Source of the DNA: a phage
Direction: 5' to 3' (one strand)
Sequence record: PZ674596.1
DNA length: 64,000 nucleotides
The notes beneath the pieces were generated by a model. That model was not told the origin of the DNA and searched no databases. It was given only the letters and a program-made list of their open reading frames with translations. Positions 5,881-63,368 of this stretch are shown piece after piece; the stretch's first letter is position 1; every line of letters starts with the position of its first letter. Both the position numbers and the translations under genes were made by a program.

Positions 5881-5997
5881 TTTTTGATAGATAATAAGTA
5901 AGTACTGATCTATCATTTAACAGCTCGAAAGAGCCACGAATGAACGAAAGCCCAACGCGCATAGCGCCATCGGCCAAATCACAACAAGGAGAAACAC

Positions 5998-7026
5998 ATG
6001 TCTAAGACATTACTTGATTTGCTTAACAAAACTCGTGAAGACATTGCCGCCAAACGTGGTAACAACGTTGATCTGACTCGCTTAAAAGACGGCGTCAACT
6101 ATATTCGCATCTTCCCGAATAAAGACGACCCAAACGGTAAGTTCTTCCAGACTTTCGGTATGCACTACGTTAAGTATCAGAACGAGGAAGGTAAAGAAGC
6201 AACCAACGCTTATATTTGTGAGCAACATACTCACGGTCGCGCTTGTCAGCTATGCGAAATGGTGATGGAAGGTCGCGCTCGTCACAAGGGTAACAAAGCA
6301 ATGGAAGAACGCATCGGTCAAATGCGTGCCACTCCTCGCTACCTGGTCAACGGCATTCTTTCTGCTCGTGAGGATTTCGCAGATGCTGAGAAATGCCAGT
6401 TAATCGAGCTGCCGTCTACTGTATTCGATGATATCTGCAAAGCAATCACCGAAGACATCGCTGATGATATCGGCAATCCACTGAGCAAAGAGGAAGGCTA
6501 CGCATTCCTGATTAAACGTACTGGCTCTGGTCGCGATACCAAATATGACGTCTCGCCTAAGCGTAAAGTCTACAAAGGCGATATCGAAGATAAATTCTGG
6601 AATACCCAGCATGATCTGATCGCATACGCAAATCAGGCTGATGAAACTCGTCTTCTGTCGACAGTTCGCACTATGGGTCGTCTGATTGGCATCGCTGCAC
6701 CAACTGCCGCAGCATCTGCACCAGCAATTTCCTCAACCGCGAAAACATCGGCTGCGGCACTACCTGGATTTGGCTCTGTCACTGGTCATACGGAGGGTGC
6801 GACTGCTGTAGCTACCGCTCATACCCCAGCTTCTGAACCAACCAGTCTGGTTGATGAAGAAATCCTCCGTGCCGTTGAAACTGAATTTAAACCAGAAGCA
6901 AGTCCCGCTGCCGTTGCAGTATCAGTCAAAGAGTCTGAAGCAGTCGCAGCGACATCTGTAGCAGCCGCATCTGCGACGGAAGATGAAGGTCTGGATGACC
7001 TACTGAGAGAGCTGGACTCTCTGTAA
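5998..7026 (+). CDS. ssDNA-binding protein, T4 gp32-like
   Basis: 342 aa; His/Cys zinc-site-like cluster CEQHTHGRACQLC; Ala/Ser/Thr-rich linker; acidic C-terminal tail DEGLDDLLRELDSL. Confidence 0.65.
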   Translation: MSKTLLDLLNKTREDIAAKRGNNVDLTRLKDGVNYIRIFPNKDDPNGKFFQTFGMHYVKYQNEEGKEATNAYICEQHTHGRACQLCEMVMEGRARHKGNKAMEERIGQMRATPRYLVNGILSAREDFADAEKCQLIELPSTVFDDICKAITEDIADDIGNPLSKEEGYAFLIKRTGSGRDTKYDVSPKRKVYKGDIEDKFWNTQHDLIAYANQADETRLLSTVRTMGRLIGIAAPTAAASAPAISSTAKTSAAALPGFGSVTGHTEGATAVATAHTPASEPTSLVDEEILRAVETEFKPEASPAAVAVSVKESEAVAATSVAAASATEDEGLDDLLRELDSL

Positions 7027-7043
7027 TCCCATTACGTGACCAG

Positions 7044-7072
7044 TAAGGCGTCTACGGACGCCTTACTTTTTG
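7044..7072 (+). terminator. Rho-independent terminator after SSB gene
   Basis: Hairpin TAAGGCGTC-tac-GGACGCCTTA followed by CTTTTT. Confidence 0.6.
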
Positions 7073-7086
7073 GAAGGAATGTACCG

Positions 7087-8031
7087 GTGAATTATCTCTT
7101 CGTAGATGGCAATAGCCTGGGTTATTACCACCAACAATCTGACAAATTGCACAACGGCGAAATGGAAGTACAGGCTGCTTTCGGCTTTGTTAAGAACGTC
7201 CGTCGTTATGCCTCCATCCTCCATGCCCGACCTATGATTCTTTGGGATGGATTTAGTGACAAGCGCCGCGACTTTTACCCGGACTACAAAGCAAATCGCG
7301 ACGACGATCCTGATATGAAAAAGATGAAGGAAGGCTTTGCTATCCAGAAGCCATACATCCTCAAAATGATGACCGCGCTTGGAGTTACCCAACTCATTGC
7401 AAAAGATGCAGAAGCGGATGATCTGGCCGGGCTGCTGGTAGCCAGCATTGCACCGCAGCCAATCGTTGAACACATCTATCTGTTAACAGGCGATAGCGAC
7501 TGGCTTCAGTTAGTTCGCGAAAACGTAAGCTGGGTAAGCCTGCGCGAAGACGCCAAAAACAAGCAGGTTAATTTTGAGCAATTTGCGGAACTGACAGGAT
7601 TCGCTACTCCTCGCGCATTTTTGGAAGCAAAAGCATTACAAGGCGATAACTCGGACAACATTAGCGGTGTTGGTGGCATTGGTGCTGGCGGTGCGAAAGA
7701 GCTGCTGCATGAATGGGGAAGTGTCGCAACGATGGTACGCGGCATCAACGACGGCTCAATCGTGGTTGACAAAGGACGCCATAAGACCGCCTTCAACAAA
7801 CTAGCGAAGAATGCCTTCAACGAGAAAACAGGCTGTCGAATGCTCGAAGCGTTCAAGAGAAACATCACGCTAATGAACCTGATTGAGACGAAGTTTCCGC
7901 CTACCGAAATCGAAACAATCAAAGGCAATCGTGACGTGAAAGCATTCGAGCAACTGTGCTACGAGCTGAATTTCCGTTCGTTCCTTGAAGACCTTGAAGT
8001 GTTTGTTCTTCCATTCGAAAGGTATTGCTAA
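7087..8031 (+). CDS. 5'-3' exonuclease / flap endonuclease (T4 RNase H / T5 D15-like)
   Basis: FVDGNSLGYY N-terminal nuclease motif and H3TH motif GDNSDNISGVGGIGAGGAKELL; start placed at in-frame GTG 7087 after GGAAGGA, because table start 7036 lies inside the upstream terminator hairpin. Confidence 0.8.
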   Translation: MNYLFVDGNSLGYYHQQSDKLHNGEMEVQAAFGFVKNVRRYASILHARPMILWDGFSDKRRDFYPDYKANRDDDPDMKKMKEGFAIQKPYILKMMTALGVTQLIAKDAEADDLAGLLVASIAPQPIVEHIYLLTGDSDWLQLVRENVSWVSLREDAKNKQVNFEQFAELTGFATPRAFLEAKALQGDNSDNISGVGGIGAGGAKELLHEWGSVATMVRGINDGSIVVDKGRHKTAFNKLAKNAFNEKTGCRMLEAFKRNITLMNLIETKFPPTEIETIKGNRDVKAFEQLCYELNFRSFLEDLEVFVLPFERYC

Positions 8032-9669: not shown

Positions 9670-10500
9670 ATGAAGAAAGGTTTACTTGCAGTTGCTCTGG
9701 CGGCTATTTGCACAATGGGTCTTACTGGCTGTGATCGCGTGGAGCCTGGATACGTTGGCATCAAAGTAAACAAATTAGGTGAAGACAAAGGGATCGGTGA
9801 AGTGGTTGGCGTTGGTCGCCAATGGACAGGTCTTAACACCGAACTTTACGTATTCCCGACCTTCAAACAAATGAAGACCTACGACGAACCGTTCACATTC
9901 CAGATGAGTGACGGTACTGCTATTGGTCACAAAATTGGCGTTGCGTATCTGGTTAATCGTGACAAGGTAACGACGGTGTTCCAGACCTATCGCAAAGGCG
10001 TAGACGATATCACCGAATCAGATCTGCGTCAGAAAATTGCCGACTCTCTAAACCGTTTGGCCAGCCGTATGACCACTGACTCATTTATCGACGGTGGTAA
10101 GGCGCAATTGCTGGACAACGCACTGAAAGATATTCAGAAAGAGATGTCTCCGGTTGGTATTGAGGTACTGAGCCTGTCATGGGTTGGAAAGCCTGATTAC
10201 CCAAAAACCGTCATTGAATCTATCAACGCCAAAGTAACGGCTAACCAGCGTACTCTGCAACGTCAGCAGGAAGTTGAACAACGTAAAGCTGAGGCGAATA
10301 TGCTACGTGAACAGGCTAATGGTGAAGCTGATGCTATCCGTGCTCGTGCGCAAGCAGAAGCAGACGCCATTCGTCTGCGCGGTGAAGCTCTGCGTCAAAA
10401 CCCGAACGTTATGGAACTGGAAGCCATCAATAAATGGAATGGCCAGTTACCGCAGTACATGACTCAAGGGGCTAACACTCCTTTCATTACAGTGAAATAA
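9670..10500 (+). CDS. SPFH/band-7 (prohibitin/HflC-like) domain lipoprotein
   Basis: 276 aa; signal peptide with lipobox LTGC; C-terminal A/E/R/Q-rich coiled coil typical of SPFH proteins. Confidence 0.6.
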   Translation: MKKGLLAVALAAICTMGLTGCDRVEPGYVGIKVNKLGEDKGIGEVVGVGRQWTGLNTELYVFPTFKQMKTYDEPFTFQMSDGTAIGHKIGVAYLVNRDKVTTVFQTYRKGVDDITESDLRQKIADSLNRLASRMTTDSFIDGGKAQLLDNALKDIQKEMSPVGIEVLSLSWVGKPDYPKTVIESINAKVTANQRTLQRQQEVEQRKAEANMLREQANGEADAIRARAQAEADAIRLRGEALRQNPNVMELEAINKWNGQLPQYMTQGANTPFITVK

Positions 10501-10516
10501 CTCCCCTAAAAAGTTC

Positions 10517-10542
10517 AGGCGTCCAGTTGGACGCCTTTTTTA
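10517..10542 (+). terminator. Rho-independent terminator
   Basis: AGGCGTCC-agtt-GGACGCCT followed by TTTTTT. Confidence 0.7.
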
Positions 10543-10591
10543 TCGCAATTATCTTATTAAGAAAATAATTTGTTTAAAAGGATAAGAAAAC

Positions 10592-11017
10592 ATGACAGCT
10601 ATTAAGAAACTCTACGATGCCGCAAACGTGGCTCTGGATGTTATTGATGATGAAGCAGCAAAAGGCTTTCCTGAACCTGATTGGGCGCATCAGCTACGAA
10701 ACGCTATCGCAGAAATGACCCCACCAGATCCAACCCCCGAGGAGACAGACTGGCAGCGATTCATCCGTATGTACGCTCAGGAAATAGGTCCAACGCCAAC
10801 GGCAGAGCAGGCAATGCTGCTGAAATACTTCAAAGAGGCGGGAGAGGATTTACCAATTGATGACTCAGCATATTGGTTCCACTGCGCATGGCGTAAGTAT
10901 GACGTGATATTCACACAAGGCATGGGAAGCAAAGATATGGTTGTGTGGCATCTACTCCATATAGACACAGCCGTTGACAGAGTTATTGAACAGTTTTTCC
11001 CTAAACAAGAAGATTGA
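10592..11017 (+). CDS. hypothetical protein
   Basis: 141 aa; ATG after GGATAAGAAAAC; no recognisable motif. Confidence 0.45.
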   Translation: MTAIKKLYDAANVALDVIDDEAAKGFPEPDWAHQLRNAIAEMTPPDPTPEETDWQRFIRMYAQEIGPTPTAEQAMLLKYFKEAGEDLPIDDSAYWFHCAWRKYDVIFTQGMGSKDMVVWHLLHIDTAVDRVIEQFFPKQED

Positions 11018-21938: not shown

Positions 21939-22044
21939 CATATGGTGGGGGATATCCCCACCTTCTCTTTGATTTGTAAGCCTTGTTTAAACACATAAGA
22001 TAACAACTTGTTTAAACGCACCAAAAAAGAAAAAGGAAAAACAC

Positions 22045-28929: not shown

Positions 28930-29739
28930 ATGAGTTCGGTTGAAAATGTAATGACAAATGATGATCTGGACGAGCTGACAGCCATGTTGCAATCACTTGA
29001 TGAACCAGTAAAAAAAGCTGCACAGGTTGAAAATACTGATGATATTGACGATCTGCTGCTCGGCCTAGATGCTGGCGTAGCCATGAGTTCTGATGATGTT
29101 GCCGAAGAACTGTTCAATGAAGAAAAAGCAGGTGATTTCAGCTCTGCTTTAAATGAGTTGGAGTTAGCGCATGAGCCTATAAACATAATTAACGCTGAAA
29201 GTGTTGAAGCTGCCGAAAACGAGCCAGAACAATTGGGATTTATTGAGGTTGAAGAGTGTGTTGAGGTTAATGATGAATTAAAAGTTCAACAGTCAAATGA
29301 TAGCAATACAAATAAAAAAGCTCGTACTGCAAGAGGTCCTCGTTTTACTTTAAGTGATAAAGATGATTCGTTTTTCAATAAAGCGGGCTTAGAAAAAGAT
29401 ATTTTCTTAGACGCTTACGATAACGCGCCTGTCAAAGCAAAGGATAAGATATTAAACCTTCTTAATTGGTTTAGCGGAGGTCCAGATATTAGTGTTTACA
29501 CGGTAATTTCCATGAGACACCTTCTCACAGAAAAGAAGGCTACAAGTAATAGTATTAAGATTGCTTTAATGAGCAATCCAGAAAAACCGTATCCGCTTAA
29601 TACTGCGTCAACTCAGGCTGGGCAAATGATGGCTGTATTTCCAGCGACAGGAATTGCCGTTAGAGACGGTGGAAATCTAACATTGAACGAAGAATCACCG
29701 ATCGTTAAGAAGTTTGTCGCGGAGTACACTATTGGATGA
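28930..29739 (+). CDS. acidic hypothetical protein (candidate DNA mimic)
   Basis: 269 aa; N-terminal ~120 aa very rich in D/E; RBS AAGGAG. Confidence 0.5.
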   Translation: MSSVENVMTNDDLDELTAMLQSLDEPVKKAAQVENTDDIDDLLLGLDAGVAMSSDDVAEELFNEEKAGDFSSALNELELAHEPINIINAESVEAAENEPEQLGFIEVEECVEVNDELKVQQSNDSNTNKKARTARGPRFTLSDKDDSFFNKAGLEKDIFLDAYDNAPVKAKDKILNLLNWFSGGPDISVYTVISMRHLLTEKKATSNSIKIALMSNPEKPYPLNTASTQAGQMMAVFPATGIAVRDGGNLTLNEESPIVKKFVAEYTIG

Positions 29740-29813
29740 CGTTCCCCTACTTAAAATAAAGCCCATAGAGAGCTTTATAGTACTGGGTAAGCCAATCACA
29801 TACCCAGCACCAC

Positions 29814-29860
29814 AAAAACGCGCCAGAGAGCTTCTCGTTTGCATTTCTGGCGCGTTTTAT
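29814..29860. terminator. bidirectional hairpin terminator
   Basis: AAAACGCGCCAGA...TCTGGCGCGTTTT perfect inverted repeat. Confidence 0.6.
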
Positions 29861-29922
29861 TTGATTGCCAGACATAAAATCAAATGCAAAAATAGGTATA
29901 TACTTACCTATCGAGAAAGAAG

Positions 29923-30516
29923 ATGATTGCAGCCGAAAAAATCAAACAGCGAAAGCGCGACAACTCTCTTCGTGACCTCTGGAGAACACCTGACTGGCTG
30001 TTTTCTGCCATTCAACGTTATCTTGGAGTGACATTTGATGTTGACGTTGCCTGCAACAAGGACAATGCAAAGCTGCCTAATTTCATAGGCGTTGAGCGTG
30101 ATGCTTTGAAATCTGAATGGGGACAGCCAGGTACAATTGCCTTCCTCAATCCACCCTACTCCAAAATCTACCCCTGGATTGATGCGGCTATACGTGAGCA
30201 GGCTCGTGGAGTTACAACAGTGATGCTAATTCCTCAATCCCTAGATACAAAGTGGTATGAGCGTGCAACAGAGTGTGCGAATGAGACGATTATTCTGTCT
30301 GGTGGCCGCGTAGCGTTTGTCGAGCCTGACGTAAATCTGGGTCAGGTAGAAGTAAACATCAACCCAGGTGGCAGTATGCTCGTTGTTTTTCGAGGATTCT
30401 GTCAGGACGCTGGGCACTCTATAAGCAAGATCCCTTTGGACGTCATGAAAAGTCTGGGAGGGTATGATCCTGCGAATGTGATCAGGAAAAAAAGACCATC
30501 AAAGAAGGCTGCTTAG
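29923..30516 (+). CDS. phage-type N6-adenine DNA methyltransferase (Dam-like)
   Basis: 197 aa; catalytic motif FLNPPYS; small size typical of phage Dam family. Confidence 0.75.
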   Translation: MIAAEKIKQRKRDNSLRDLWRTPDWLFSAIQRYLGVTFDVDVACNKDNAKLPNFIGVERDALKSEWGQPGTIAFLNPPYSKIYPWIDAAIREQARGVTTVMLIPQSLDTKWYERATECANETIILSGGRVAFVEPDVNLGQVEVNINPGGSMLVVFRGFCQDAGHSISKIPLDVMKSLGGYDPANVIRKKRPSKKAA

Positions 30517-30537: not shown

Positions 30538-30595
30538 AGCCTGCTTCTGTATATATAAATAACTACATATTAATTATTAATATACGGAAGCAGGC
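30538..30595. repeat. large AT-rich palindrome (copy 1 of 2)
   Basis: AGCCTGCTTCTGTATATATAAAT...ATATACGGAAGCAGGC; near-identical arms recur at 63197-63251. Confidence 0.7.
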
Positions 30596-30701
30596 AGCTT
30601 TGTATCAGAGACTCCAGACCTGAACATCACTACAGAATCCACTAGAACCCCTTCCCAGACGCTTTAAAATCGATTTTATGAACCACTTTAAGGAAACCAA
30701 C

Positions 30702-30932: not shown

Positions 30933-31514
30933 TAGATAAGTACAAACTATTCATAAAGTGAATTGTAAGTGCTAAGATCTGATAGTTTCCAGTCGTAGAC
31001 TGGAGACTCGACCTGATGGGTGGGGGTAAGCGTCACTGGCGTCAGGTTTAAAAAAGCTCACTACCAGCGTAGAACTGGTGCCGTTTAGGTGTCGGGGAAG
31101 GGGGAACCAAAGTGAGCAGAGACAAGGGTCACTTTATGATTGTCGAGTCTGGGGTGTTTCGAGAGGTTGAATCCAGTACTCCCCTTCATAAAGTGTGGGA
31201 AGATCTCGGTTCTGGGGTGCTGTCATCCATAACTTCCCAAGTCTAAGCTGGCAGTAGACTTAGACCATAACTTTTCAGGTTATGAAACGACCAGGTTGGT
31301 GAGAGATTTTTATACTCACCTCCCTGGGAGAGTATTACCTGAAAAGACAACCTCTCACTTCGTTCGAGGTGAACTTCACTCACTTCGTTCGTTCAGTTCA
31401 GGTTTATAAAAACCTGTTCTGGGAAGTAATTTGTTTATTTTAATAATTATTAACACGCACGCGTGTGCGCACGCGCGAGGAAAAATCGGCGCGGCGCTTG
31501 ATTCAGGAGTTTAT

Positions 31515-32946: not shown

Positions 32947-33039
32947 CGGCTGTTAGTGCATATGCATTGACCATCTCTGCGTAAGCAATTTATGTAATTA
33001 GAAAACAACTTGTTTTGACAAATAATAAAAGGAAAGCAC

Positions 33040-33653: not shown

Positions 33654-33762
33654 TTGACCGAAATAGAGAGTTTGCACCTTTACGTTTAGCTTGCTCCCCT
33701 TTTATGCCACATCACAATAAAGCCAATAAGAAAACAACTTGTTTAAGCATTAGGAAAAACAC

Positions 33763-34329
33763 ATGTGCAAGAAATGCAAAGCGATAGCTGATGAACAAAA
33801 CGCCTTATTCGAAGAAATGGATGCTAATGAACTGGTCAAAATGTTAGCCATTCTTCGAGGAATAGAAGACGTTTCCATATTTGAGAGACTGTTTACAATA
33901 CTTAATTTTAATTCCACCTTTGAAGAGCCAACTCAGATTGTAGCTTTGGCACACCATTTCGGTGTTCATTACCTTGCTGAAAAAGAGAGAGCTGATAAGT
34001 TGCAAGCGACTTTGGATATGGTGAGCGAGACTCAAGAAACTGATGACGGTAACAAAAGTGAGACGATTATTGCCAGCAAAGATCGTGAAATTGCCGGGCT
34101 TAAATCCTCTCTAACGATGTTGATGTCTGCAATCAACCTTATGTCTTCTAAAGCAGGTTCTAAAATGCCATCACTAAACAGCGACGATCCGATGGCCGTT
34201 CGCCAGCTTTTAGGTGCAATGGCCGACCAGCTCGACGACACAAAGAGTCGCCTTGAAGACATGATGCGGGAGCTCACGCATCGCCATGACTTGAATAAGC
34301 AGCCGCACAAAACGCAATACGCACTCTAA
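33763..34329 (+). CDS. hypothetical protein
   Basis: 188 aa; start context AGGAAAAACACATG. Confidence 0.5.
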   Translation: MCKKCKAIADEQNALFEEMDANELVKMLAILRGIEDVSIFERLFTILNFNSTFEEPTQIVALAHHFGVHYLAEKERADKLQATLDMVSETQETDDGNKSETIIASKDREIAGLKSSLTMLMSAINLMSSKAGSKMPSLNSDDPMAVRQLLGAMADQLDDTKSRLEDMMRELTHRHDLNKQPHKTQYAL

Positions 34330-34369: not shown

Positions 34370-34470
34370 CGCCTTAAATCTGCTGTAACGCCTATGAATG
34401 CAGCTTTTATGCCTTTTCAAGTTTGCGATAATTACACCAATCAGAAAACAAATTATTTAATGGTGTAATT

Positions 34471-37332: not shown

Positions 37333-37395
37333 AAGGCCATAAGTTGTGGCCTTAAATAAATTGTTTTCCACCTTTTCTTATTTGTGAAAATAACC
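37333..37395 (+). promoter_or_regulatory. conserved terminator-promoter cassette
   Basis: Hairpin AAGGCCATAAGTTGTGGCCTT followed by AAATAAATTGTTTTCCACCTTTTCTTATTTGTGAAAATAACC; related copies near 42960, 46910, 50971, 51577. Confidence 0.55.
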
Positions 37396-37421
37396 ACAAC
37401 TAGAAAACAACGGAGTTAAGA

Positions 37422-38063
37422 ATGTCTAGTATTTCCGAAGCTCATATGTTCGCCGCTGGCGCTCATGGTGGCGTTGGTCAGAAAAGAAAATATACCGGCG
37501 AAGACTACATCAACCACCCGGTTGCGGTCCGAGAGATTGTTGCATTGCATGACGGAACCGTGGAGATGCAAATCGCGGCGCTTCTGCATGATGTGGTCGA
37601 AGACACCCATGTAACCATAGAGATGGTTCGTGATCACTTCGGTGAGCGCGTAGCTGAAATGGTTCAGGCTCTGACCAACATTGCAAGGCCAGAAGACGGC
37701 AATCGAATACAGCGTTTCATCATCAATGTCCGGGAGCTGGAGCAAAATCTCGACATGCAGACGCGCATGATCAAGCTGGCTGACCTGCTCGACAATACCT
37801 CTTCTATCGTGAGTCGCGATCCCGAGTTTTCAGCTGTCTACCTCGCAGAGAAAGAACTGATGCTGGACGTACTCTTTCACGGCAAAGAGATTGGTGCCAA
37901 CGCTGATGTTGTCGAGTACATGGAGAGGATAGGTATAGAACACCCGTTGCTATTAAGCGCAATGGCGAAAGTCACTGAAGGTATTGCGCTTCTGAAACCG
38001 GTACACATCAAACGTTATGAAAAACACAAATCGCTGATCTGGAGCGCGTGGGAGGCTGCATGA
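37422..38063 (+). CDS. SpoT/RelA-type HD-domain (p)ppGpp hydrolase-like protein (small alarmone hydrolase)
   Basis: 213 aa; aligns to RelA/SpoT hydrolase domain: EDYINHPVAV..IAALLHDVVEDT..FGERVAEMV..IKLADLLDN. Confidence 0.7.
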   Translation: MSSISEAHMFAAGAHGGVGQKRKYTGEDYINHPVAVREIVALHDGTVEMQIAALLHDVVEDTHVTIEMVRDHFGERVAEMVQALTNIARPEDGNRIQRFIINVRELEQNLDMQTRMIKLADLLDNTSSIVSRDPEFSAVYLAEKELMLDVLFHGKEIGANADVVEYMERIGIEHPLLLSAMAKVTEGIALLKPVHIKRYEKHKSLIWSAWEAA

Positions 38064-42418: not shown

Positions 42419-42943
42419 ATGACTAAATTTGGAAAGCTGGAAGCTCATTTGCTAACTCGTAACTACCGCCATGATGTGCATCCATATAGACAGTGGATCG
42501 ATGAAAGCGAAGGAGTTGTTACATTCCCTCTATACAGGTTTGATGGGATGTTGGCCGGGTATCAGACATACAGACCAGGCGCTCCTAAGCAGCATAGCAA
42601 TCCGAAGATGGCCCGGTATTTCACACGAGCGCACGGCAGACAGCTACTATGGGGAACCTATCTTCCTTTAAAAGATGGACCGATATGGATAACTGAGTCG
42701 ATTTTTAAAAGTGCAGCAGTGCACAACGCGGGCGGAAATTCGTGGGCGCTGTTAGGTTCGACTTTCTCAGCAGGATTACGTCGTCAACTGGCAATGCTGC
42801 CGTATGACTTTCGCGTAATAGGTGACAATGATGCGGCTGGTGAATCACTTGTGAAGTCTTTCGGAAAAGGTTTTGTGGCCCCGGATCTTGACGAGCTACA
42901 ACCAAATGAAGTGTCTCATTTGATTTTTAGCCATAGCCAATAA
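42419..42943 (+). CDS. Toprim-like domain protein (tentative)
   Basis: 174 aa from ATG 42419; acidic motifs ITESIF and GDNDAAGE spaced like Toprim E and DxD. Confidence 0.4.
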   Translation: MTKFGKLEAHLLTRNYRHDVHPYRQWIDESEGVVTFPLYRFDGMLAGYQTYRPGAPKQHSNPKMARYFTRAHGRQLLWGTYLPLKDGPIWITESIFKSAAVHNAGGNSWALLGSTFSAGLRRQLAMLPYDFRVIGDNDAAGESLVKSFGKGFVAPDLDELQPNEVSHLIFSHSQ

Positions 42944-42959
42944 GCATCCCTTCTCCATT

Positions 42960-43022
42960 AAGGCCACTAGTTGTGGCCTTAAACAATTTGTTTTCTACCT
43001 TTTCTTGTTCGAGAAAATAACG
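42960..43022 (+). promoter_or_regulatory. conserved terminator-promoter cassette
   Basis: AAGGCCACTAGTTGTGGCCTT followed by AAACAATTTGTTTTCTACCTTTTCTTGTTCGAGAAAATAAC. Confidence 0.55.
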
Positions 43023-43079: not shown

Positions 43080-43099
43080 TACTGTATAAATGAACAGTA
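43080..43099 (+). promoter_or_regulatory. LexA (SOS) box upstream of humD-like gene
   Basis: TACTGTATAAATGAACAGTA fits CTGT-N8-ACAG; 17 nt upstream of ATG 43116. Confidence 0.7.
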
Positions 43100-43115: not shown

Positions 43116-43505
43116 ATGGGCTTCCCTTCTCCTGCGGCGGATTATGCTGAGAGCCGTATTTCTCTTGATCAGCAGATAATTAGACATCCTTCAGCGACCT
43201 ACTTCATGAGAGCGGCTGACAGCCATCATCGTGAGGGAATATTGCAGGGCGCATTGCTGGTGGTCGATTCCTCACTTACCCCGGTTGATGGTTCTCTGCT
43301 TGTATGCGCTCTGGATGGGGAATATCGCGTAAAAAGATACCGGAAGTATCCACGTCAGCATCTGGAGGATTTAAGAACTGGTAAGAAGGAAGCATTGCCA
43401 AAGGATGACGATGGATGCACGGGCAGCAATGCCGTGTTTGGTGTGATCACTCACATTATCAACGACGCAAGAAGTGGCGAGTTTGATGATTGTCCCGTGA
43501 TGTAG
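43116..43505 (+). CDS. humD: UmuD'-like protein lacking the N-terminal arm (HumD-like)
   Basis: 129 aa beginning MGFPSPAADY, i.e. at the UmuD Cys24-Gly25 processing site; Ser and Lys of the catalytic dyad alignable (ADSH; VKR); P1 HumD has the same form. Confidence 0.75.
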   Translation: MGFPSPAADYAESRISLDQQIIRHPSATYFMRAADSHHREGILQGALLVVDSSLTPVDGSLLVCALDGEYRVKRYRKYPRQHLEDLRTGKKEALPKDDDGCTGSNAVFGVITHIINDARSGEFDDCPVM

Positions 43506-44643: not shown

Positions 44644-44800
44644 CCCGTCTCCTTTATTTTAATTTGCGCAATTGTCGCCTTGTAGTGTACTCCAGCTACG
44701 ACATTTAATCATTTATGAGAAATGCTGTTATCACATGGCAGACATAAGGCCATTTTGTTACTATCAAGCCCCTTTTCACTACAAAGAAGTAATGCCTACT

Positions 44801-46834
44801 ATGACCCAAGTCGCGAAGAAAATTCTGGTGACGTGCGCGCTGCCGTACGCTAACGGCTCAATCCACCTCGGCCATATGCTGGAGCACATCCAGGCTGATG
44901 TCTGGGTTCGTTACCAGCGAATGCGCGGCCACGAGGTTAATTTCATCTGTGCCGACGATGCCCACGGTACGCCGATCATGTTGAAAGCACAGCAGCTTGG
45001 TATCACACCGGAGCAGATGATTGGCGAAATGAGTCAGGAACATCAGACTGATTTCGCAGGCTTTAACATCAGCTATGACAACTATCACTCGACGCACAGC
45101 GAAGAGAACCGTCAGTTGTCCGAGCTTATCTATACTCGCCTGAAAGAGAACGGTTTTATTAAAAACCGCACCATCTCTCAGCTGTACGACCCGGAAAAAG
45201 GCATGTTCCTGCCGGACCGTTTTGTAAAAGGCACATGCCCGAAATGTAAAGCGCCGGATCAATACGGCGATAACTGTGAAGTCTGCGGCGCTACTTACAG
45301 CCCGACTGAACTGATCGAGCCGAAATCGGTAGTTTCTGGTGCTACGCCGGTAATGCGTGATTCCGAACACTTCTTCTTTGATCTGCCTTCTTTCAGCGAA
45401 ATGTTGCAGGCATGGACCCGCAGCGGTGCGTTGCAGGAGCAGGTGGCAAACAAAATGCAGGAGTGGTTTGAATCTGGCCTGCAACAGTGGGATATCTCCC
45501 GCGATGCGCCGTACTTCGGTTTTGAAATTCCGAACGCACCGGGCAAATATTTCTACGTCTGGCTGGACGCGCCGATTGGCTACATGGGTTCCTTCAAGAA
45601 TCTGTGCGACAAACGCGGCGACACTACCAGCTTCGACGAATACTGGAAGAAAGACTCCACCGCCGAGCTGTACCACTTCATCGGTAAAGATATCGTTTAC
45701 TTCCACAGCCTGTTCTGGCCTGCCATGCTGGAAGGCAGCAACTTCCGCAAGCCGACCAACCTGTTTGTTCACGGCTATGTGACGGTGAACGGCGCGAAGA
45801 TGTCCAAGTCTCGCGGCACCTTTATTAAAGCCAGCACCTGGCTGAATCATTTTGACGCCGACAGCCTGCGTTACTACTACACTGCGAAACTCTCTTCGCG
45901 CATTGATGATATCGATCTCAATCTGGAAGATTTCGTTCAGCGTGTGAATGCCGATATCGTTAACAAAGTGGTTAACCTGGCCTCCCGTAATGCAGGCTTT
46001 ATCAACAAGCGTTTTGACGGCGTGCTGGCAAGCGAACTGGCTGACCCGCAACTGTACAAAACCTTTACTGATGCCGCTGAAGTGATTGGCGAAGCATGGG
46101 AAAGCCGCGAATTTGGCAAAGCTATCCGTGAAATCATGGCACTGGCTGACCTGGCTAACCGCTATGTTGATGAACAGGCTCCGTGGGTGGTGGCGAAGCA
46201 GGAAGGACGCGATGCCGATCTGCAGGCGATTTGCTCTATGGGCATTAACCTGTTCCGCGTGCTGATGACGTACCTGAAACCGGTACTGCCGAAACTGACT
46301 GAACGTGCAGAAGCATTCCTGAATACAGAACTGACCTGGGATGGTATCCAGCAACCGCTGCTGGGCCATAAAGTGAATCCGTTCAAGGCACTGTATAACC
46401 GTATCGATATGAAACAGGTGGAAGCACTGGTGGAAGCATCCAAAGAAGAAGTGAAAGCCACAGCTGCACCGGTAACTGGCCCACTGGCTGACGACCCGAT
46501 TCAGGAAACCATCACCTTTGACGACTTCGCCAAAGTTGACCTGCGTGTGGCGCTGATTGAAAACGCGGAGTTTGTCGAAGGTTCTGACAAACTGCTTCGC
46601 CTGACGCTGGATCTCGGTGGTGAAAAGCGTAATGTCTTCTCAGGCATCCGTTCCGCTTATCCAGATCCACAGGCACTGATTGGTCGTCACACCATTATGG
46701 TGGCTAACCTGGCACCACGTAAAATGCGCTTCGGTATCTCTGAAGGCATGGTGATGGCTGCTGGCCCCGGCGGGAAAGATATCTTCCTGTTAAGCCCGGA
46801 TGCTGGTGCTAAACCTGGCCACCAGGTTAAGTAA
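44801..46834 (+). CDS. metG: methionyl-tRNA synthetase (host-type)
   Basis: 677 aa from ATG 44801 (table ORF has spurious 43-aa extension); [16 protein letters not shown], Zn knuckle CPKCK..CEVCG; near-identical to enterobacterial MetG as I recall it. Confidence 0.95.
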
Positions 46835-46856: not shown

Positions 46857-46880
46857 GCCCGGCAACACGCCGGGCATTTT
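46857..46880 (+). terminator. Rho-independent terminator after metG
   Basis: GCCCGGC-aacac-GCCGGGC followed by ATTTT. Confidence 0.7.
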
Positions 46881-46995
46881 CATATAGACACAATCCCTCC
46901 TGATTTACACAAGCCCTAAAACAATTTGTTTTCTACCTTTTGTTGATTGAGATAATAAGCCACATAAGAAAACAACTTGTTTTGGAGTAGTTGAA

Positions 46996-47295
46996 ATGTT
47001 GAACATTACCCAAGCCTACCAGGTGGCATTGATCAGTTCATCTCATACATCAGAGGAAGATGCTCGCCGATTCATGATCGCAAGCAATGAGCTGGATTGG
47101 GTTTCACAAATTGATGGCGGTTGTATTGTTCACGCCGGGTTACAGGATGATGTCTGGAAAGACGACTTGCGTCGATATGGTATATCCGAAGGCGCGATTG
47201 CTAACATTCAGAAAGTACTTGATGTAGGCTTTGACTCTGTACATTTTGATTGTGGAGCACCAGTCGTTGAAGGGCTTGAGTGCTGGAACTGGTAA
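46996..47295 (+). CDS. hypothetical protein
   Basis: 99 aa; preceded by AAAACAACTTGTTTT palindrome and GGAG. Confidence 0.45.
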   Translation: MLNITQAYQVALISSSHTSEEDARRFMIASNELDWVSQIDGGCIVHAGLQDDVWKDDLRRYGISEGAIANIQKVLDVGFDSVHFDCGAPVVEGLECWNW

Positions 47296-48189: not shown

Positions 48190-48935
48190 TTATACAAATA
48201 AGAAAACAACTAAATAACAGATCAACGAAACGTCAACGCTTTCACCCGATTTGGTCTAAAAAATTGACGTTTTCACACATCACTTCTTATACCCGTAACT
48301 CTACGCAGCAGACAGCGCCACAGCGTCCAATTTTCACCACAGACGACCCAACACACTACCAACAAAAACACACGCTCAAAATCGCTCCCGTTGCGTTACA
48401 CAACCATATAAACAACTTATTTTCAGGCATAACAAAACAACTAAATAACACACATGCCATTCCCAAAAACAACCAACCTCTTTATGGCAGGCTACCGAAA
48501 AGACCCACCTCTTCTCCCCAGGCTACCGGACAACCAACCTAACTTTCACAGGCAATCCGAAAACATTCATACGCGCGATACCCACGACACGCCATTCCCC
48601 AAACAGCGAAGAAACACCAGAATCACTGAAACCCCAACGAAGCCTGTAACCGCAAGGATTCTCTCAATCCCAAAAGACACGAAACAGAACAATCACGGGA
48701 AACGCCATTACCCAATACACGAATAACTACAAAAGCCTTTCACACACTCCAGACAAACAACTCAAACACAATAACGAAAGGAATCGCCCACCTGCCATTA
48801 CTCCATACACGGAGAAGAACAATCACCAAAACGACGAGAACACCCCATAGAAGAACCACCGCAAAACGAACGAAACCACATACACCGACAGAGAAAACAG
48901 CACACCCAATTCACCAACAGAAATAGTCGCCGTAT
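48190..48935 (+). repeat. G-depleted A/C-rich low-complexity tract with dispersed direct repeats
   Basis: ~750 bp with almost no G on plus strand; 17-mer AAAACAACTAAATAACA twice (near 48199 and 48434); GCCATT(C/A)C(C/T)C-type repeats near 48456, 48591, 48704, 48794. Confidence 0.7.
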
Positions 48936-49127
48936 AGAACATTCTGGAAGGAGTGAGCATTAACGCCTATAGAGAGGTTGAGACAGATAAAACACAACAT
49001 GTATAGCGAAGAAGCCAGGTATGTATAAGTGGGGAGGGAAGGAGGGGTGTCGCCTCCTTTTTCGTATTTATTCAACTCCTGATTTTATCCCCCGTAACAC
49101 CCCTACGGTCAGCCTTCGGTCCATACA

Positions 49128-49266: not shown

Positions 49267-49616
49267 TATAGCGAGAGGGAGAGTTGCGGCTACCCACCTG
49301 TAATGTGCGGGAAGAAGAGAGGCGCTCACGTAGGCGGACTTGCTTACCGCTGGATTCCCTCTGAATGCCCAGCTACAGCGTAATTGTGCCAGACAGCCAA
49401 CGGGTCACAATCGATTTCAGTAGGTTTTTGGGGAGAGGATTACTCTGCCACCAGCCACTTTCGGCCACTAAATCAGAATAATGTAAAAAGTGTACTCGGT
49501 ACTGAACCTGAAAACTCACTGCCAAAACCACATTCACCGGAATAAAATCCTTTTTCGCCTGTGCGTTATTGCGATAATAACACCATCAAGAAAACATGTT
49601 GTTTAAGGATTGCTTT

Positions 49617-49946: not shown

Positions 49947-50099
49947 CCCCAACCAAAGCCAGCATTGCTGGCTTAATTTCTCTATAGCCGCAGGGAAGAA
50001 CCTGCATATCGCTCATGCACCTGATCAATATGCTTTGTAGCCGTTTTCTTACTGGTATTATTTACGCCATTGAGAAAACAAGTTGTTTACGGAGTTGTA

Positions 50100-50942: not shown

Positions 50943-50970
50943 AATGGCGCGTAAACCGCGCCATTTTATT
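50943..50970 (+). terminator. Rho-independent terminator
   Basis: AATGGCGCG-taaac-CGCGCCATT followed by TTATT. Confidence 0.65.
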
Positions 50971-51050
50971 AAGCCCGATAACAATTTGTTTTCTGCCTTA
51001 TCTGATTTGTGAAAATGATTTCACTGAAGCAAGTTAATAAGGAAACCATC

Positions 51051-51425: not shown

Positions 51426-51775
51426 ATATGGGCGATTTCAAGAAACGCCTGAAGGAAAGAGCCGAGATGGTCAGAAAGCAAAACGCCTCTTCTGTCATCA
51501 GATACGCAAGGCAGTTTAGTCGCAACAACAAATCAGTTGAGGAAAAGATCCTTAGCGTAATCGTGCGATAATTATTAAGGCCACCAGCATTGGTGGTCTT
51601 AAATGACCATCCTGTTTCCCTCAGGCTAATAACACCAACCTCTTACCTCCAGGCAACCGACAAACCCACCTGTTCCCGTCCGGCTACCGCAACTTTCCAC
51701 TTTGACGCCTTATTCGTACAACGATAATTAACGCCAACAAGAAAACAATTTGTTATTTACGATAAGGAATTAATC

Positions 51776-54622: not shown

Positions 54623-55144
54623 TCAAAACGGTAAAATTCGTTCAACCCAATCGAAGAATACAAGTGTTTTTCTGCCGTCTTCTAACTTAAGAGTGACCTG
54701 GCAAGCATCAACGCCTCTTGATATCCCTTCTATTTCACGACCGTCTGCCATGTAGACCCTTATAGATTTGCCGTTTTGGTAAGCCTGACGACATATCTTA
54801 AAAAAGTCACGACGTGATGGCTGATTGTCAACATAGTCTGGATGTATTGTTAGCCTACCTTTGAACTCGCGAGCAATGCCATCGATTACACCTGATTCAA
54901 TTGTGCTAATGCGCTCAAGTGGGAGTCTTATACGATTTTCTTTATCATATGGAAGCGGGCATAAATCTAGCTTATTGCGGGAAGGCATTGTCCCCTGAAC
55001 GTACATGCAAAACACCTGACCGTCTTCAAGCGTGACTCTTACAGGAATGTTGTTTTTCCGCCAGAACATAAGTATGTTTTCAGCATGTTCGTAGTCTCGT
55101 GGCCAGACTTCTGCTGGAATGCCGTAGGTGATGTCTTTAACCAT
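54623..55144 (-). CDS. hypothetical protein with internal tandem repeat of ~80-aa domain (weak Sm/Hfq-like signature)
   Basis: 173 aa; halves share R..N.IPVRVTLEDGQV / GKSIRVYMADGREIEG pattern; ends 3 nt before the secreted-protein gene. Confidence 0.45.
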   Translation of the reverse strand: MVKDITYGIPAEVWPRDYEHAENILMFWRKNNIPVRVTLEDGQVFCMYVQGTMPSRNKLDLCPLPYDKENRIRLPLERISTIESGVIDGIAREFKGRLTIHPDYVDNQPSRRDFFKICRQAYQNGKSIRVYMADGREIEGISRGVDACQVTLKLEDGRKTLVFFDWVERILPF

Positions 55145-58075: not shown

Positions 58076-58354
58076 TTACGGCAACCTGCTCAGTATTTCC
58101 TCTAAATCTTTTTTTGTCATATTGGAGTTTTCATAGATGCGCATGATTTTCTCACGCGTCTTAGCGGAAACCCCAACGGCAGATGTGACTTTGTCAAATT
58201 CAGCCATAGTCATCGTCTCCAGAATGGCATTGATAACTTCAGCCTTAGACATCTTGATTTTTTTCTCTTTGAGTTTTATTTGAAATTTTCCAAGTTTTTC
58301 ATTGGCCTTATCAGACAATGCCACTTGGCAATAAGTTGTTTTTTTTTCGCTCAT
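58076..58354 (-). CDS. small hypothetical protein
   Basis: 92 aa, Lys-rich; starts 2 nt after helicase stop. Confidence 0.4.
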   Translation of the reverse strand: MSEKKTTYCQVALSDKANEKLGKFQIKLKEKKIKMSKAEVINAILETMTMAEFDKVTSAVGVSAKTREKIMRIYENSNMTKKDLEEILSRLP

Positions 58355-59916: not shown

Positions 59917-59998
59917 AAACCTCTTTCCTTAGTGCCTTTTGTATGTTATTTGGCTATTATAATAAGTAAGTGATTACTTAGTGGATTGTAGCAATAAA

Positions 59999-60679
59999 AT
60001 GGATGTAAAAATCACGATTTTGCAGGTTGATGTTGCCAACCTTCGCCCGAATACCTGGAACACCAATTCGGTTGGTGCGCAGAATTTTGAAAAACTGAAA
60101 GGTTCTATCGAAAAATTGGGCTTTTTTAAGCCAATTTTGGCTCGTGAACTTGAAGATGGATTTTTTGAAATCCTCGGCGGCGAACATCGCTGGCGTGCTG
60201 CTATTGAGCAAGGAATTTCAACGGTTCCGGTGCTTTCTGTGGGCAAAATTAGCGATGTCGTAGCTAAACAGATGTCACTGGTGGACAACGAGCGATACGG
60301 TGAAGACGACCAAATCGCATTGCAACGCTTCATTGAAGAAATTCAGTCAGAACTTGACTATCAACTGTCTGAAATCGCCCCGTATGACGACGAAATCTCG
60401 ATGGTTTTAGCAAAAGAGGCGGCAATCGACCTTGAAGCACTGGAGGCGTTGTCTCGTGGTAGTGATGAGCCTGTCGATACCGACAAACGAGAGAAAACCG
60501 AACGTGTGGGTGCGGAACATCAGACCATGCGCTTCAAAGTAACTTTCGATGCGTCAGATCGTGTTGCAGAAACCATAAAAAACATCATCAAAGAGCAGGC
60601 TATTAACACCGGTAATGAAATGGAGAACGCTGGTGAGGCTCTGGTGTGGCTGGTCGACTACTACAAGGAGCGTATGTAA
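59999..60679 (+). CDS. ParB N-terminal-domain (ParB/Srx-like) protein 1
   Basis: GGEHRWRAA ParB box-II-like motif; start uncertain (ATG 59999 or GTG 59981). Confidence 0.5.
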   Translation: MDVKITILQVDVANLRPNTWNTNSVGAQNFEKLKGSIEKLGFFKPILARELEDGFFEILGGEHRWRAAIEQGISTVPVLSVGKISDVVAKQMSLVDNERYGEDDQIALQRFIEEIQSELDYQLSEIAPYDDEISMVLAKEAAIDLEALEALSRGSDEPVDTDKREKTERVGAEHQTMRFKVTFDASDRVAETIKNIIKEQAINTGNEMENAGEALVWLVDYYKERM

Positions 60680-61347
60680 TGACCAAAAAGTTTGAAATCG
60701 TATATCGCGACCCGGCAGATCTTATTCCCTATGAGATGAATGCCAAAAAGCATGATGAACAGCAGATCCGAGATCTGGCCGCAGCCATTAAAAAGCGCGG
60801 ATTTGACCAGCCAATTACGGTCGATAAGAACGACGTAATTATTACTGGCCACGGCCGCCGTGAGGCTGCAATTTTTGCTGGACTTGAGCGCGTACCGGTT
60901 ATTGTTCGCGATGATCTCAGTGATGACGAGGTTCGTGCGAAGCGCCTTGAAGATAACCGACTTGCCAGCATTGATTACGATGCAATTAAGCTACAGAAAG
61001 AGCTTGAGTCGCTTGTTCTGGACGATATCGAGGTTTTCGGCTTTGAAGAGCGTGAGTTGAATGTTCTCGTTGGCAGTATGACAGAAGAAATGGACACCGA
61101 TTCGCTAGTTATCGATCTTGGCGAAGAAACTAAACGACAGAAGGATGAACACACCGAGATCAGTCGTGAAGTTGCAGCGGAAGAAGTACGTGTTGTCGAC
61201 GTATTGGGCTTTAAAACGCTCCCTGCTGGCTCTGCCATTGTTGTTGGTGATTTGCTTGCCCACATGGAAGAAATGACGGGAGAAAGCGGGGTAGACGCAT
61301 TTGTGGCATATGCGGAGAAGATCTCTTCCGGGGAGATGGCTGCATGA
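60679..61347 (+). CDS. ParB N-terminal-domain (ParB/Srx-like) protein 2
   Basis: 222 aa from ATG overlapping upstream stop; ITGHGRREAA motif; acidic C-terminal half. Confidence 0.5.
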   Translation: MTKKFEIVYRDPADLIPYEMNAKKHDEQQIRDLAAAIKKRGFDQPITVDKNDVIITGHGRREAAIFAGLERVPVIVRDDLSDDEVRAKRLEDNRLASIDYDAIKLQKELESLVLDDIEVFGFEERELNVLVGSMTEEMDTDSLVIDLGEETKRQKDEHTEISREVAAEEVRVVDVLGFKTLPAGSAIVVGDLLAHMEEMTGESGVDAFVAYAEKISSGEMAA

Positions 61348-62905: not shown

Positions 62906-63172
62906 ATGACGTTAACCGACAAACAAAAGGACATCATCAAAACGCTCAATCTCGGTTATGAGCGAGGTCATCTACTTGATCTGGACGAATTGCTTGAAGT
63001 TTTGCCGTACAAGACAACAAAGCAAAGTATCCAGTTCTCAATTCGCGCTCTGATAAAAAAGGGGCTGGTGGAGAAAGGGCATACGCGCCAACGCAGTGAC
63101 AATCGCTATCACCGCCGGACTCTTGGGTTAACCACTTTAGGTCGAGCCAAAGCGAAGTTACTGGTGATGTAA
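62906..63172 (+). CDS. small basic protein, possible winged-helix DNA-binding
   Basis: 88 aa; helix-turn-wing-like segment; last gene of operon. Confidence 0.4.
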   Translation: MTLTDKQKDIIKTLNLGYERGHLLDLDELLEVLPYKTTKQSIQFSIRALIKKGLVEKGHTRQRSDNRYHRRTLGLTTLGRAKAKLLVM

Positions 63173-63196
63173 TCGGTCTGGGAGCTTATTTAAAGA

Positions 63197-63251
63197 CCTG
63201 CTTCTGTATATATAAATAATAAGTAACTTATTAAATATATACGGAAGCAGG
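63197..63251. repeat. large AT-rich palindrome (copy 2 of 2)
   Basis: CCTGCTTCTGTATATATAAATAATAAGTAACTTATTAAATATATACGGAAGCAGG; centre is ATAAGT-A-ACTTAT. Confidence 0.7.
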
Positions 63252-63368
63252 CTTAGTAAGACATGCCCAGACCTAATTAAACACCCCAGAAAACAAGTTG
63301 GTTAGCATACGCAGTAAACAAGTTGTTTTAGAGCGCATGGACGCGCTCTGTGTGTTTTAGAGGGATCT

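Follow-up and report, generated by a model that had tools for sequence, protein, structure and literature searches.

Introduction

Operators dispersed over a replicon, and composite cassettes that join a terminator to a promoter, are both known kinds of element. KorB of the IncP plasmid RK2 has 13-bp palindromes (TTTAGCnGCTAAA) at 12 promoter-proximal or distal sites, and omega of pSM19035 is a ribbon-helix-helix (RHH) partition protein that also acts as a repressor. ParG, another RHH partition protein, doubles as a repressor at the OF operator of TP228 (PMC3130281), and the phage-plasmid N15 carries dispersed centromere sites, IR1-4, which are bound by SopB (PMC7205306). In T4-type phages, the composite terminator/promoter cassettes called PeSLs (promoter early stem-loops) mediate modular gene shuffling (PMC2839356, PMC4122927). 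Here we analyse a 64,000-nucleotide (nt) stretch of phage DNA (sequence record PZ674596.1), referred to below as the window, which carries at positions 42960-43022 one copy of a short cassette composed of a hairpin, a palindrome and promoter-like sequence. The 15-base near-palindrome of this cassette, AAAACAAnTTGTTTT, adjoins promoter-like sequence ahead of ~16 gene groups of what is an SSU5-type phage-plasmid. We conclude that the element is a conserved promoter cassette with a probable operator in two alternative placements, that it would define a regulon of ~16-18 units in SSU5-type phage-plasmids, and that it also serves as a point of gene exchange. All functions assigned below to promoters, terminators and operators are inferred from sequence, from comparison with relatives and from one published lysogen transcriptome.

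Clinical Escherichia, Salmonella and Klebsiella commonly carry SSU5-type phage-plasmids, among them pHCM2-type plasmids and carriers of CTX-M-15 such as pECOH89, and very little is known about their quiescence and lytic switch. A single 15-bp site ahead of ~18 units amounts to a directly testable regulon and provides a handle for finding the protein that controls it. The cassettes also offer an explanation for accessory-gene swapping in which the newcomers would fall under the same control, and this bears on the carriage and expression of resistance and defence genes.

Results

A recurrent near-palindrome ahead of scattered gene groups

The region of the window around the element is 95-99% identical to the Escherichia phages CMS-2020a, PhiR41_1 and Cyrano (~108 kb). 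Cyrano, an SSU5-like siphovirus phage-plasmid, resides in E. coli LF82 as the plasmid prophage pLF82 (PMC9928086). Salmonella phage SSU5 itself matches the window patchily at ~84% identity, the conserved DNA of pJN2-26 (Klebsiella) is ~73-79% identical, and likeness to P1/P7 is confined to the humD area. With the annotated Cyrano genome as reference, the window starts at the cobalamin-synthesis genes and extends 640 nt into the gene for the terminase small subunit (terS), and its interior holds T4-like replication, recombination and nucleotide-metabolism genes, a long run of small genes of unknown function, humD, a methionyl-tRNA synthetase (MetRS) gene and two ParB-domain genes. Coordinates below are those of the window, and refer to its + strand unless marked otherwise or attributed to a relative.

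With at most one mismatch allowed, the palindrome core AAACAAnTTGTTT occurs at 16 sites in the window. Shuffled sequence would be expected to hold 0.04 copies of the 15-mer and 0.19 of AACAAnTTGTT, and the observed count was reached in 0/100 shuffles. All 16 sites are intergenic by the annotation of near-identical Cyrano and all stand ahead of + strand genes; with ~11% of the window non-coding, a share that was taken from a crude map of open reading frames (ORFs), the chance of 16/16 intergenic placements is ~3e-16. Twelve of the 16 fall within 33-52 kb, amid small genes of unknown function.

The initial annotation, made from the letters of the window, had described two things: a ~60-bp terminator-promoter unit at five positions and a shorter AAAACAA(C/T)TTGTTTT palindrome at eleven others. 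These are one and the same site, TAAACAAnTTGTTTTC being the exact reverse complement of GAAAACAAnTTGTTTA. All eleven short palindromes are present within a few bases of where they had been placed (10562, 22000, 33002, 33731, 34445, 46969, 49591, 50075, 51742, 63290 and 63315), and an additional one, absent from that list, lies at 48409. Four of the five longer units also hold up (37333, 42960, 46910 and 50971), sharing ...AAACAAnTTGTTTTC-tACCTTTTc-N9-TGnGAaAAT in a multiple alignment of nine cassettes (alignment A3) in which the hairpin, the palindrome, the CCTTTT box and the TGnGAaAAT stretch can all be recognised. The fifth, at 51577, has to be withdrawn as a copy of the cassette: it possesses a related hairpin, AAGGCCACCAGCATTGGTGGTCTT, and neither the palindrome nor the promoter box. 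Nor is one hairpin common to all units, as had been proposed; AAGGCCAC..GTGGCCTT is present at 37333 and 42960, and the units at 46910 and 50971 have other hairpins upstream (46857-46875 and 50946-50962). The idea that the sites mark the borders of transcription units agrees with their setting, since they come after terminator-like hairpins whose stems show compensatory changes and before a -10-like hexamer, a Shine-Dalgarno (SD) sequence and an ATG. As to the putative terminator of the cassette, the hairpin in its AAGGCCAC form is stable and has no adjacent T-run.

Two placements around a putative extended -10 promoter

The palindrome adopts two placements relative to the promoter-like sequence. 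Class B sites, aAG-AAAACAAnTTGTTT-A, lie 12-13 nt past a -10-like hexamer that is often TG-preceded (TGCGATAAT, TGAGATAAT), and 11-31 nt ahead of the start codon, immediately before the SD sequence. Class A sites, T-AAACAAnTTGTTTT-C, are the exact reverse complement of class B; they abut a hairpin and are followed by tACCTTTTc-N9-TGnGAaAAT, such that the class A TAAACAAnTTGTTTTC is ~22 nt ahead of the -10. If transcription starts ~7 nt past the hexamer, class B sites would be centred at about +14 and class A sites at about -38. Where a promoter has both placements, the A-to-B centres are always 51 bp apart; this holds for 46918-46983 of the window and for loci in SSU5, pJN2-26, Cyrano and IMG/VR (metagenomic). 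Class A-only promoters often retain a half-site, GAAAACAA, at the downstream position, as at 37403. Among 171 unique class B contexts, a set picked solely by the flanks of the palindrome, AAAACAA most commonly follows the hexamer after 12-13 nt (in 70 of the 123 contexts having a hexamer, with a second mode at 19 nt), and the SD/ATG most often comes 11-14 nt after the site.

The cassette at 42960 begins with the hairpin AAGGCCACTAGTTGTGGCCTT (42960-42980), which has an RNA fold of -16.2 kcal/mol (z -4.3), is terminator-like with no adjacent T-run, and would mark the end of the preceding unit. It continues into the class A operator-like palindrome TAAACAATTTGTTTT(C) (42980-42994), centred ~-38 from the putative start, and then into a putative promoter core (42998-43018) that comprises, by alignment A3, a CCTTTTC box, a 9-nt gap and cgaGAAAAT with its -10-like hexamer at 43013-43018. 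In relatives the stems of the cassette hairpin vary in a compensatory manner (GGCCAC/GTGGCC, GGCTAT/ATAGCC, GGCAGT/ACTGCC). In the nine aligned cassettes the putative promoter comes <100 bp after the hairpin, the two forming a single conserved unit; predicted hairpin folds run from -12 to -16 kcal/mol.

A second full cassette spans 37333-37391, with a hairpin at 37333-37353, the palindrome TAAATAAATTGTTTT at 37353-37367, a CCACCTTTTC box and TGTGAAAAT at 37383-37391; the half-site just mentioned occupies 37403-37410, the +12 position of this promoter, directly before the SD sequence of the ORF at 37422. The double-placement promoter at 46918-46983 has its class A site at 46918-46932, TGAGATAAT at 46948-46956 and its class B site at 46969-46983, with the ATG at 46996. 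At 50946-51016 the cassette uses a different hairpin (GGCGCGTAAACCGCGCC plus ATTTTATT), followed by a class A site (50978-50992), a GCCTTAT box and TGTGAAAAT (51008-51016). The class A-oriented palindrome TAAACAACTTATTTT(C) at 48409-48423, by comparison, is embedded in ~800 nt (48200-48990) that on the + strand are strongly enriched in A/C and poor in G/T, and that hold no convincing gene; this stretch also contains AAAACAACTAAATAACA twice, as well as half-sites, and is 68-71% conserved in SSU5 and pJN2-26.

Most other sites are class B. AAAATAATTTGTTTA (10562-10576) comes after a hairpin (10518-10535) with a T-run and 16 nt before the ATG at 10592; ATAACAACTTGTTTA (22000-22014) precedes an nrdB-like gene (22045), AAAACAACTTGTTTT (33002-33016) an ORF at 33040 and AAAACAACTTGTTTA (33731-33745) an ORF at 33763. 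At 34424-34459, TGCGATAAT (34424-34432) is separated by a 12-nt gap from AAAACAAATTATTTA (34445-34459), before a DUF4942 gene (34471), and the same TGCGATAAT with the same gap recurs at 49570-49605, where it occupies 49570-49578, the palindrome AAAACATGTTGTTTA occupies 49591-49605 and the ATG is at 49609. After AAAACAAGTTGTTTA (50075-50089) the ATG is 11 nt on. Finally, at 51721-51756, acGATAAT (51721-51728) and a 13-nt gap lead to AAAACAATTTGTTAT (51742-51756), before the ORF at 51776.

Conservation and the late-operon leader

The complete Cyrano genome (108 kb) has 18 sites, each standing before a gene or operon. There are 0 within the 28-kb operon that runs from terminase to lysis, two stand at the head of this operon, and others lie ahead of parA, a DnaB-like helicase gene, cobT and nrdB. 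SSU5 and the Klebsiella element pJN2-26 display the same site and the same architecture, partly ahead of different genes, so that three host genera are represented, and the accessory regions of relatives contain up to 10 sites per 11 kb. A scan of viral contigs with AGAAAACAANTTGTTTA returned SSU5-like contigs and chance matches, and no unrelated phage group with several genuine sites; the matches in records L007 and L019 were set aside as chance, lying inside coding DNA. A scan of genome contigs with the same pattern gave single chance matches only, among the matches listed.

In the window the leader of the late operon (63290-63329) follows TAATTA (63274-63279) and holds a class B-oriented AAAACAAGTTGGTTA (63290-63304) and a class A-oriented TAAACAAGTTGTTTT (63315-63329). 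A comparison of 41 sequence variants shows that the leader retains its site or sites, and that the centres of the pair are 25 bp apart, with a spacer of fixed length and drifting sequence. Between these sites and the SD/ATG of terS (63370) lies a terminator-like GC hairpin, GAGCGCATGGACGCGCTC plus TGTGTGTTTT (63331-63359). Its stem shows compensatory changes in relatives (GAGCAC/GTGCTC, GGCGTC/GATGCC) and one lineage is without the T-run; the hairpin could be an attenuator, a terminator that requires antitermination, or a 5' stabiliser.

The window also contains two copies of a separate long inverted repeat, (A/G)CCTGCTTCTGTATAT - 25 nt AT-rich - ATATACGGAAGCAGGC, at 63196-63252 and 30539-30595, each with CCAGACCT ~15 nt after it. 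One copy is just upstream of the late-operon promoter and is kept upstream of terS in 41 relatives, and the other comes before a small ORF at 30678. This repeat may be the site of a late-gene regulator.

Cassettes at gene-exchange junctions

Comparison with close relatives places the cassettes at several points of gene gain, loss or replacement. Between 38.6 and 48.1 kb the only homology between the window and SSU5 is the 82-bp cassette at 46914-46994, with unrelated genes on either side. The window has one cassette, at 49570-49605, at a point where PhiR41_1 has, in succession, a promoter cassette, a 72-codon gene, a hairpin and a further promoter cassette, and this one-gene indel can be followed to its join: the upstream half of the window's cassette corresponds to the first PhiR41_1 copy and the downstream half to the second, meeting at the palindrome at 49592. 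In Cyrano, two direct copies of TTAAGGCCACCAnnnnTGGTGGyCTTAAATGAC enclose an extra gene, CYRAN_110; the window has a single copy, the palindrome-free hairpin at 51577-51600. Immediately past a cassette, at 37393-37396, the synteny of the window with Cyrano and PhiR41_1 breaks off. Of 102 alignment ends, 15 lie ≤60 nt from a site, against 2.8 expected under a uniform model (P ~1.5e-7).

Expression in the lysogen and the sign of regulation

Normalised reads are available for every Cyrano gene in the LF82 lysogen grown in LB (lysogeny broth) medium (PMC9928086 S1 Table). The first genes behind sites gave 7.1 (CYRAN_1), 5.7 (CYRAN_58), 7.0 (CYRAN_85), 7.1 (CYRAN_87), 7.8 (CYRAN_90), 6.3 (CYRAN_93), 7.5 (CYRAN_101) and 5.7 (CYRAN_108), a range of 5.7-7.8 that does not exceed the median of 9.8 for the prophage (PMC9928086 S1 Table). 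With their first genes at background, the putative promoters that bear the sites are therefore off in the lysogen.

We propose the following mechanism. The window would have ~16 copies of a regulatory cassette peculiar to SSU5-type phage-plasmids, each made up of three parts: (i) a hairpin, usually present, that ends the preceding transcription unit; (ii) an extended -10, sigma-70-like promoter (TGnGATAAT/GAAAAT) that has no recognisable -35 and carries a gCCTTTTc box ~9 nt upstream of the -10; and (iii) one or two 15-17-bp near-palindromes, (G)AAAACAAnTTGTTT(A). The palindrome would be the operator of a dimeric, phage-encoded DNA-binding protein, positioned either over the early transcribed region (~+14, between -10 and SD sequence) or, inverted, over the -35 region (~-38), and the bound protein would block RNA polymerase. 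This block would keep all site-bearing units shut during the plasmid-prophage life of the phage, from accessory genes and several genes of replication and nucleotide metabolism to the 28-kb late operon. At the same time, the near-identical repeated cassettes may act as crossover points for the gain, loss or swap of single genes. Taken as a whole, with its dispersed operator cassettes, repressing regulator and role in recombination, this is the best explanation that we can offer, and we give it slightly better than an even chance of being right. Transcription start, protein binding, sign of regulation and identity of the binder are all inferred.

An extended -10 promoter is usually activator-independent, and +14 and -38 are typical positions for repressors, which are sometimes paired. 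We favour a repressor operator because such a promoter needs no activator and because the two placements coincide with standard repressor positions; that the site-binding protein represses is nevertheless a claim that we hold at even strength, neither for nor against.

Several observations weigh against the proposed mechanism or against parts of it. A few genes next downstream of site-bearing units (CYRAN_102, CYRAN_109 and the parA operon) do show expression in the lysogen, and a need for an activator would account just as well for the silence seen there. Repression alone gives no part to the conserved CCTTTT spacer box, which is a hint of a further factor. As regards the promoter, a strict test finds no hexamer in 48 of the 171 class B contexts, and TGn occurs in just 56 of 123, so the promoter assignment is the commonest pattern and not a universal one. 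A consensus sigma-70 scan of the window calls none of the cassette promoters, which it misses because they have no -35; the same scan gave counts of promoter-like and terminator-like sequences in the window that are not above those of shuffles. The excess of breakpoints near sites vanishes if breakpoints are confined to intergenic DNA, and the recombination argument is therefore carried by the individual junction cases. Lastly, the control region of the CI-like helix-turn-helix (HTH) gene CYRAN_45 (CYRAN_45/46; 42575-42825 of the Cyrano record, L003) is without an AAACAA site.

The best-surviving alternative is that the cassettes form a phage-specific class of middle or late promoters that need a phage activator, by the logic of Lpa of P1 or MotA of T4, with the palindrome and/or the CCTTTT box as the recognition element and the activator absent from the lysogen. 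The lack of a -35 hexamer, the conserved box 8-9 nt upstream of the -10, the site on the late structural operon and the silence of site-led genes in the lysogen would all suit an activator, and a small winged-helix-like protein is encoded (62906-63172) directly upstream of the late promoter. The genome's other dispersed palindrome class, TAGGTAAGTACTTACCTA, could moreover be the true immunity operator, which would leave the AAACAAnTTGTTT class as a second tier. Against this, most sites lie at ~+14, past the putative start, where activators hardly ever act; copies at -38 are inverted, and a single promoter can have the site in both places; a TGn extended -10 speaks for a promoter that needs no activator; and the late promoters of P1/P7 differ in both sequence and position, with CAAGTGACT 4 nt before the -10. 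On this evidence we think an activator class unlikely.

A probable DNA site rather than an RNA structure

The repressing mechanism supposes that the palindrome is read in double-stranded DNA, and its pattern of variation bears directly on this point. Across 153 unique sites the arms show 74 one-sided changes (4 of them G.U-compatible) and 0 compensatory ones, and the four bases are about evenly represented at the centre (C28, T28, G25, A23). Half-sites that are conserved independently, a free centre and fixed spacings make up the signature expected of a symmetric dimer on double-stranded DNA, and they agree with the initial annotation in so far as it had taken the palindromes as probable regulator-binding sites. 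We consider it probable that the palindrome is a protein-binding operator within promoter cassettes.

The palindrome might instead act in RNA, as a 5'-leader motif for a translational repressor like RegA of T4, as a nut-like antiterminator site, or by pairing with another copy. Class B sites are indeed inside the putative 5' untranslated region, 11-31 nt from the start codon, the two late-leader sites can pair with one another just before a terminator-like hairpin, the hairpins between units would need read-through, and the window encodes an FljA-like mRNA-binding repressor. The variation argues otherwise, in that compensatory changes are missing from the 153 sites and perfect two-fold symmetry around a free centre is the product of a dimer on double-stranded DNA. 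In five leader folds the palindrome was unpaired in the minimum-energy structures, with energies equal to those of shuffles (z -0.65 to +0.82), so that its predicted hairpin is unstable; inverted class A copies are upstream of the promoter and would thus be outside the same transcript; and a scan of the whole window against Rfam at gathering thresholds gave no match. Action in RNA is, in our assessment, quite improbable.

Least credible of all is that the repeats have no regulatory role of their own and are the ends of a mobile or recombining promoter cassette spread by duplication, with the palindrome as a recombination or cleavage site. In its favour, cassettes occupy indel junctions, one of them stands as a lone stretch of homology, and relatives can have as many as 10 sites within 11 kb of accessory sequence. 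On the other side, sequence flanking the palindrome has diverged far more than the palindrome itself between genomes of 73-79% identity, the distances from the site to the -10 and to its partner are exact, sites also stand ahead of the non-moving core genes nrdB, helicase, cobT and terS, and no recombinase is associated. An integron attC identity was rejected, the core not fitting GTTRRRY and a paper cited in this connection not mentioning SSU5 sites.

A second palindrome class and a candidate binding protein

The proposal that the cassettes carry a second class of regulator-binding site is borne out to the extent that the palindrome is distinct from another dispersed palindrome of the genome, TAGGTAAGTACTTACCTA. 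This other palindrome, of 18 bp (TAGGTAAGT-ACTTACCTA, with up to 5 mismatches), has 10 copies in the window, at 5895, 9415, 11368, 14875, 19559, 29893, 32106, 36157, 50476 and 59963, and 18 in Cyrano. The copies are intergenic and usually lie between TTGAtA -35-like and TAtcAT -10-like hexamers, ahead of replication and recombination genes; some of those in Cyrano sit between late structural genes. One member of the class, GGTAAGTGCTTACC, is found in the CYRAN_45/46 control region. The presence of this dispersed palindrome beside the CI-like gene implies that the genome has two operator classes, of which the AAACAAnTTGTTT site is the second. The 18-bp palindromes are probably that other operator class, and are possibly the operators of the immunity repressor.

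What might bind the AAACAAnTTGTTT site? To our knowledge, none of the sites of host factors such as Fis, IHF, KdgR, NrdR, PurR and Cra, or of 434-type operators, fits the half-site and its spacing; the KdgR site has AAACA/TGTTT in common and a different spacing. Searches of the small candidate proteins against Pfam, PHROGs and PDB sequences were uninformative, bar a weak HTH_19 match for the CI-like CYRAN_45. The two proteins with ParB-N domains (59981-61347) are not expressed in the lysogen.

Our leading candidate comes from the ParA operon, which is outside the window, at 29307-30334 of Cyrano (L003), 6498-7522 of SSU5 (L208) and 9882-10909 of pJN2-26 (L329). ParA is of type Ib size (222 aa) and matches Pfam AAA_31, MipZ and CbiA. 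In its 119-aa partner (29975-30334 of Cyrano) a basic tail at the N-terminus leads into what, by eye, is a strand-helix-helix pattern, and the protein gave no Pfam or PDB sequence match. The partner is expressed 9-fold over background in the lysogen, and its C-terminal 97 residues are 97-98% identical among Cyrano, SSU5 and pJN2-26, where in the same phages its own ParA is 83-91% and eleven other proteins are 51-96% identical. The palindrome, as AAAACAAGTTGTTTC, lies 33-35 nt before the parA ATG, in conserved context, in all three, and no repeat array was seen near the par genes. This ParG-like partition protein is a lead rather than a result, and we would not expect it to prove the binder. 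It is similarly doubtful that one partition protein serves both as reader of a dispersed centromere and as global silencer of ~18 lytic promoters, the late operon included. If it did, plasmid inheritance would be linked to prophage silencing, both being read from the same sites.

A 92-aa RHH-looking protein (58076-58354, - strand) was set aside as the binder, since its conservation is only 51-58% in phages whose site is invariant. It is encoded downstream of a UvsW-like helicase gene, has an N-terminal strand-helix-helix pattern (TTYCQVALSDKANEKLGKF...MSKAEVINAILE) and is 12-fold over background in the lysogen; its AlphaFold2 model, with a mean predicted local distance difference test (pLDDT) score of 52, is too poor for a fold search.

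Neighbouring features

Downstream of the 42960 cassette, a LexA box, TACTGTATAAATGAACAGTA (43080-43099), lies ahead of the umuD-like humD (43116-43505), whose expression in the Cyrano lysogen is high (148 against the median of 9.8). The segment 42200-43078, which includes the 42960 cassette, is missing from Cyrano. A full-length MetRS gene (44672-46834), annotated as such in Cyrano and PhiR41_1, is flanked on one side by an opposite-strand MinD/ParA-like gene and on the other by the double-site promoter at 46918.

FljA is the repressor of phase-1 flagellin. The window encodes a full-length homologue of it (54623-55144, - strand; Pfam Flag1_repress, E 3e-82), as do SSU5 and pJN2-26, and the phage-plasmid may thereby be able to turn off host flagellin. 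A further non-coding region, 30950-31480, contains exact 13-nt direct repeats of CTCACTTCGTTCG at 31354 and 31379 and an alternating purine-pyrimidine run, CACGCACGCGTGTGCGCACGCGCG, at about 31455-31478. Its Cyrano counterpart, annotated as the 44-codon CYRAN_81, is 12-fold over background in the lysogen, and the region could be a small RNA or origin-like.

Discussion

A literature search using motif strings, and SSU5/pHCM2 promoters, motifs and repeats, found no description of the palindrome, within an incomplete coverage of the literature, and this member of the known kinds of dispersed operator and composite cassette appears to be undescribed. Its nearest likeness as a cassette is to the PeSLs. 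In both cases a short unit of stem-loop and promoter is present in many copies among small accessory genes, at the insertion, deletion and replacement junctions of close relatives. PeSLs belong to T4-type myoviruses and have the T4 early-promoter consensus, unlike the putative extended -10 without a -35 hexamer that characterises the cassettes of this phage-plasmid, an SSU5-like siphovirus. Nor does the definition of a PeSL include a palindromic operator-like site, which is present here in two orientations; the two kinds of cassette were compared by their architecture.

As a regulon, the arrangement resembles that of C1 in P1, where one short site stands ahead of many separate operons of a plasmid prophage and the genome has two site classes. 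It resembles a C1-type immunity regulon further in the silence of the downstream genes in the lysogen, and differs from one in that the control region of the CI-like repressor's own gene is without the site. The P1 C1 operators are asymmetric 17-mers, unlike the symmetric 15-mer at +14 or -38 described here. The late promoters of P7 (LPmat, LPpro and LPlyz) have CAAGTGACT/CAAGTGATT 4 nt before the -10, whereas our promoters have AAACAAnTTGTTT at +14 or -38; this comparison with P1/P7 is based on the annotated P7 record, in which CAAGTGACT is the '-22 region'.

Partition systems provide the remaining parallels. KorB, a partition-related repressor, likewise uses a 13-bp palindrome with a free centre in about a dozen copies near promoters; it is a ParB-family HTH protein and its site differs in sequence. 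In common with N15, ParG and omega, single palindromes are scattered here over a plasmid prophage, and one of them is in the promoter of the parA operon. N15 has four sites and its SopB is an HTH protein of the ParB type, unlike the ~18 sites found here and an RHH-like candidate that is known from a sequence pattern by eye. Should the candidate nevertheless prove correct, these phage-plasmids would present an omega-like or N15-SopB-like arrangement at genome scale, combined with a recombinase-free means of plugging new genes into the regulon.

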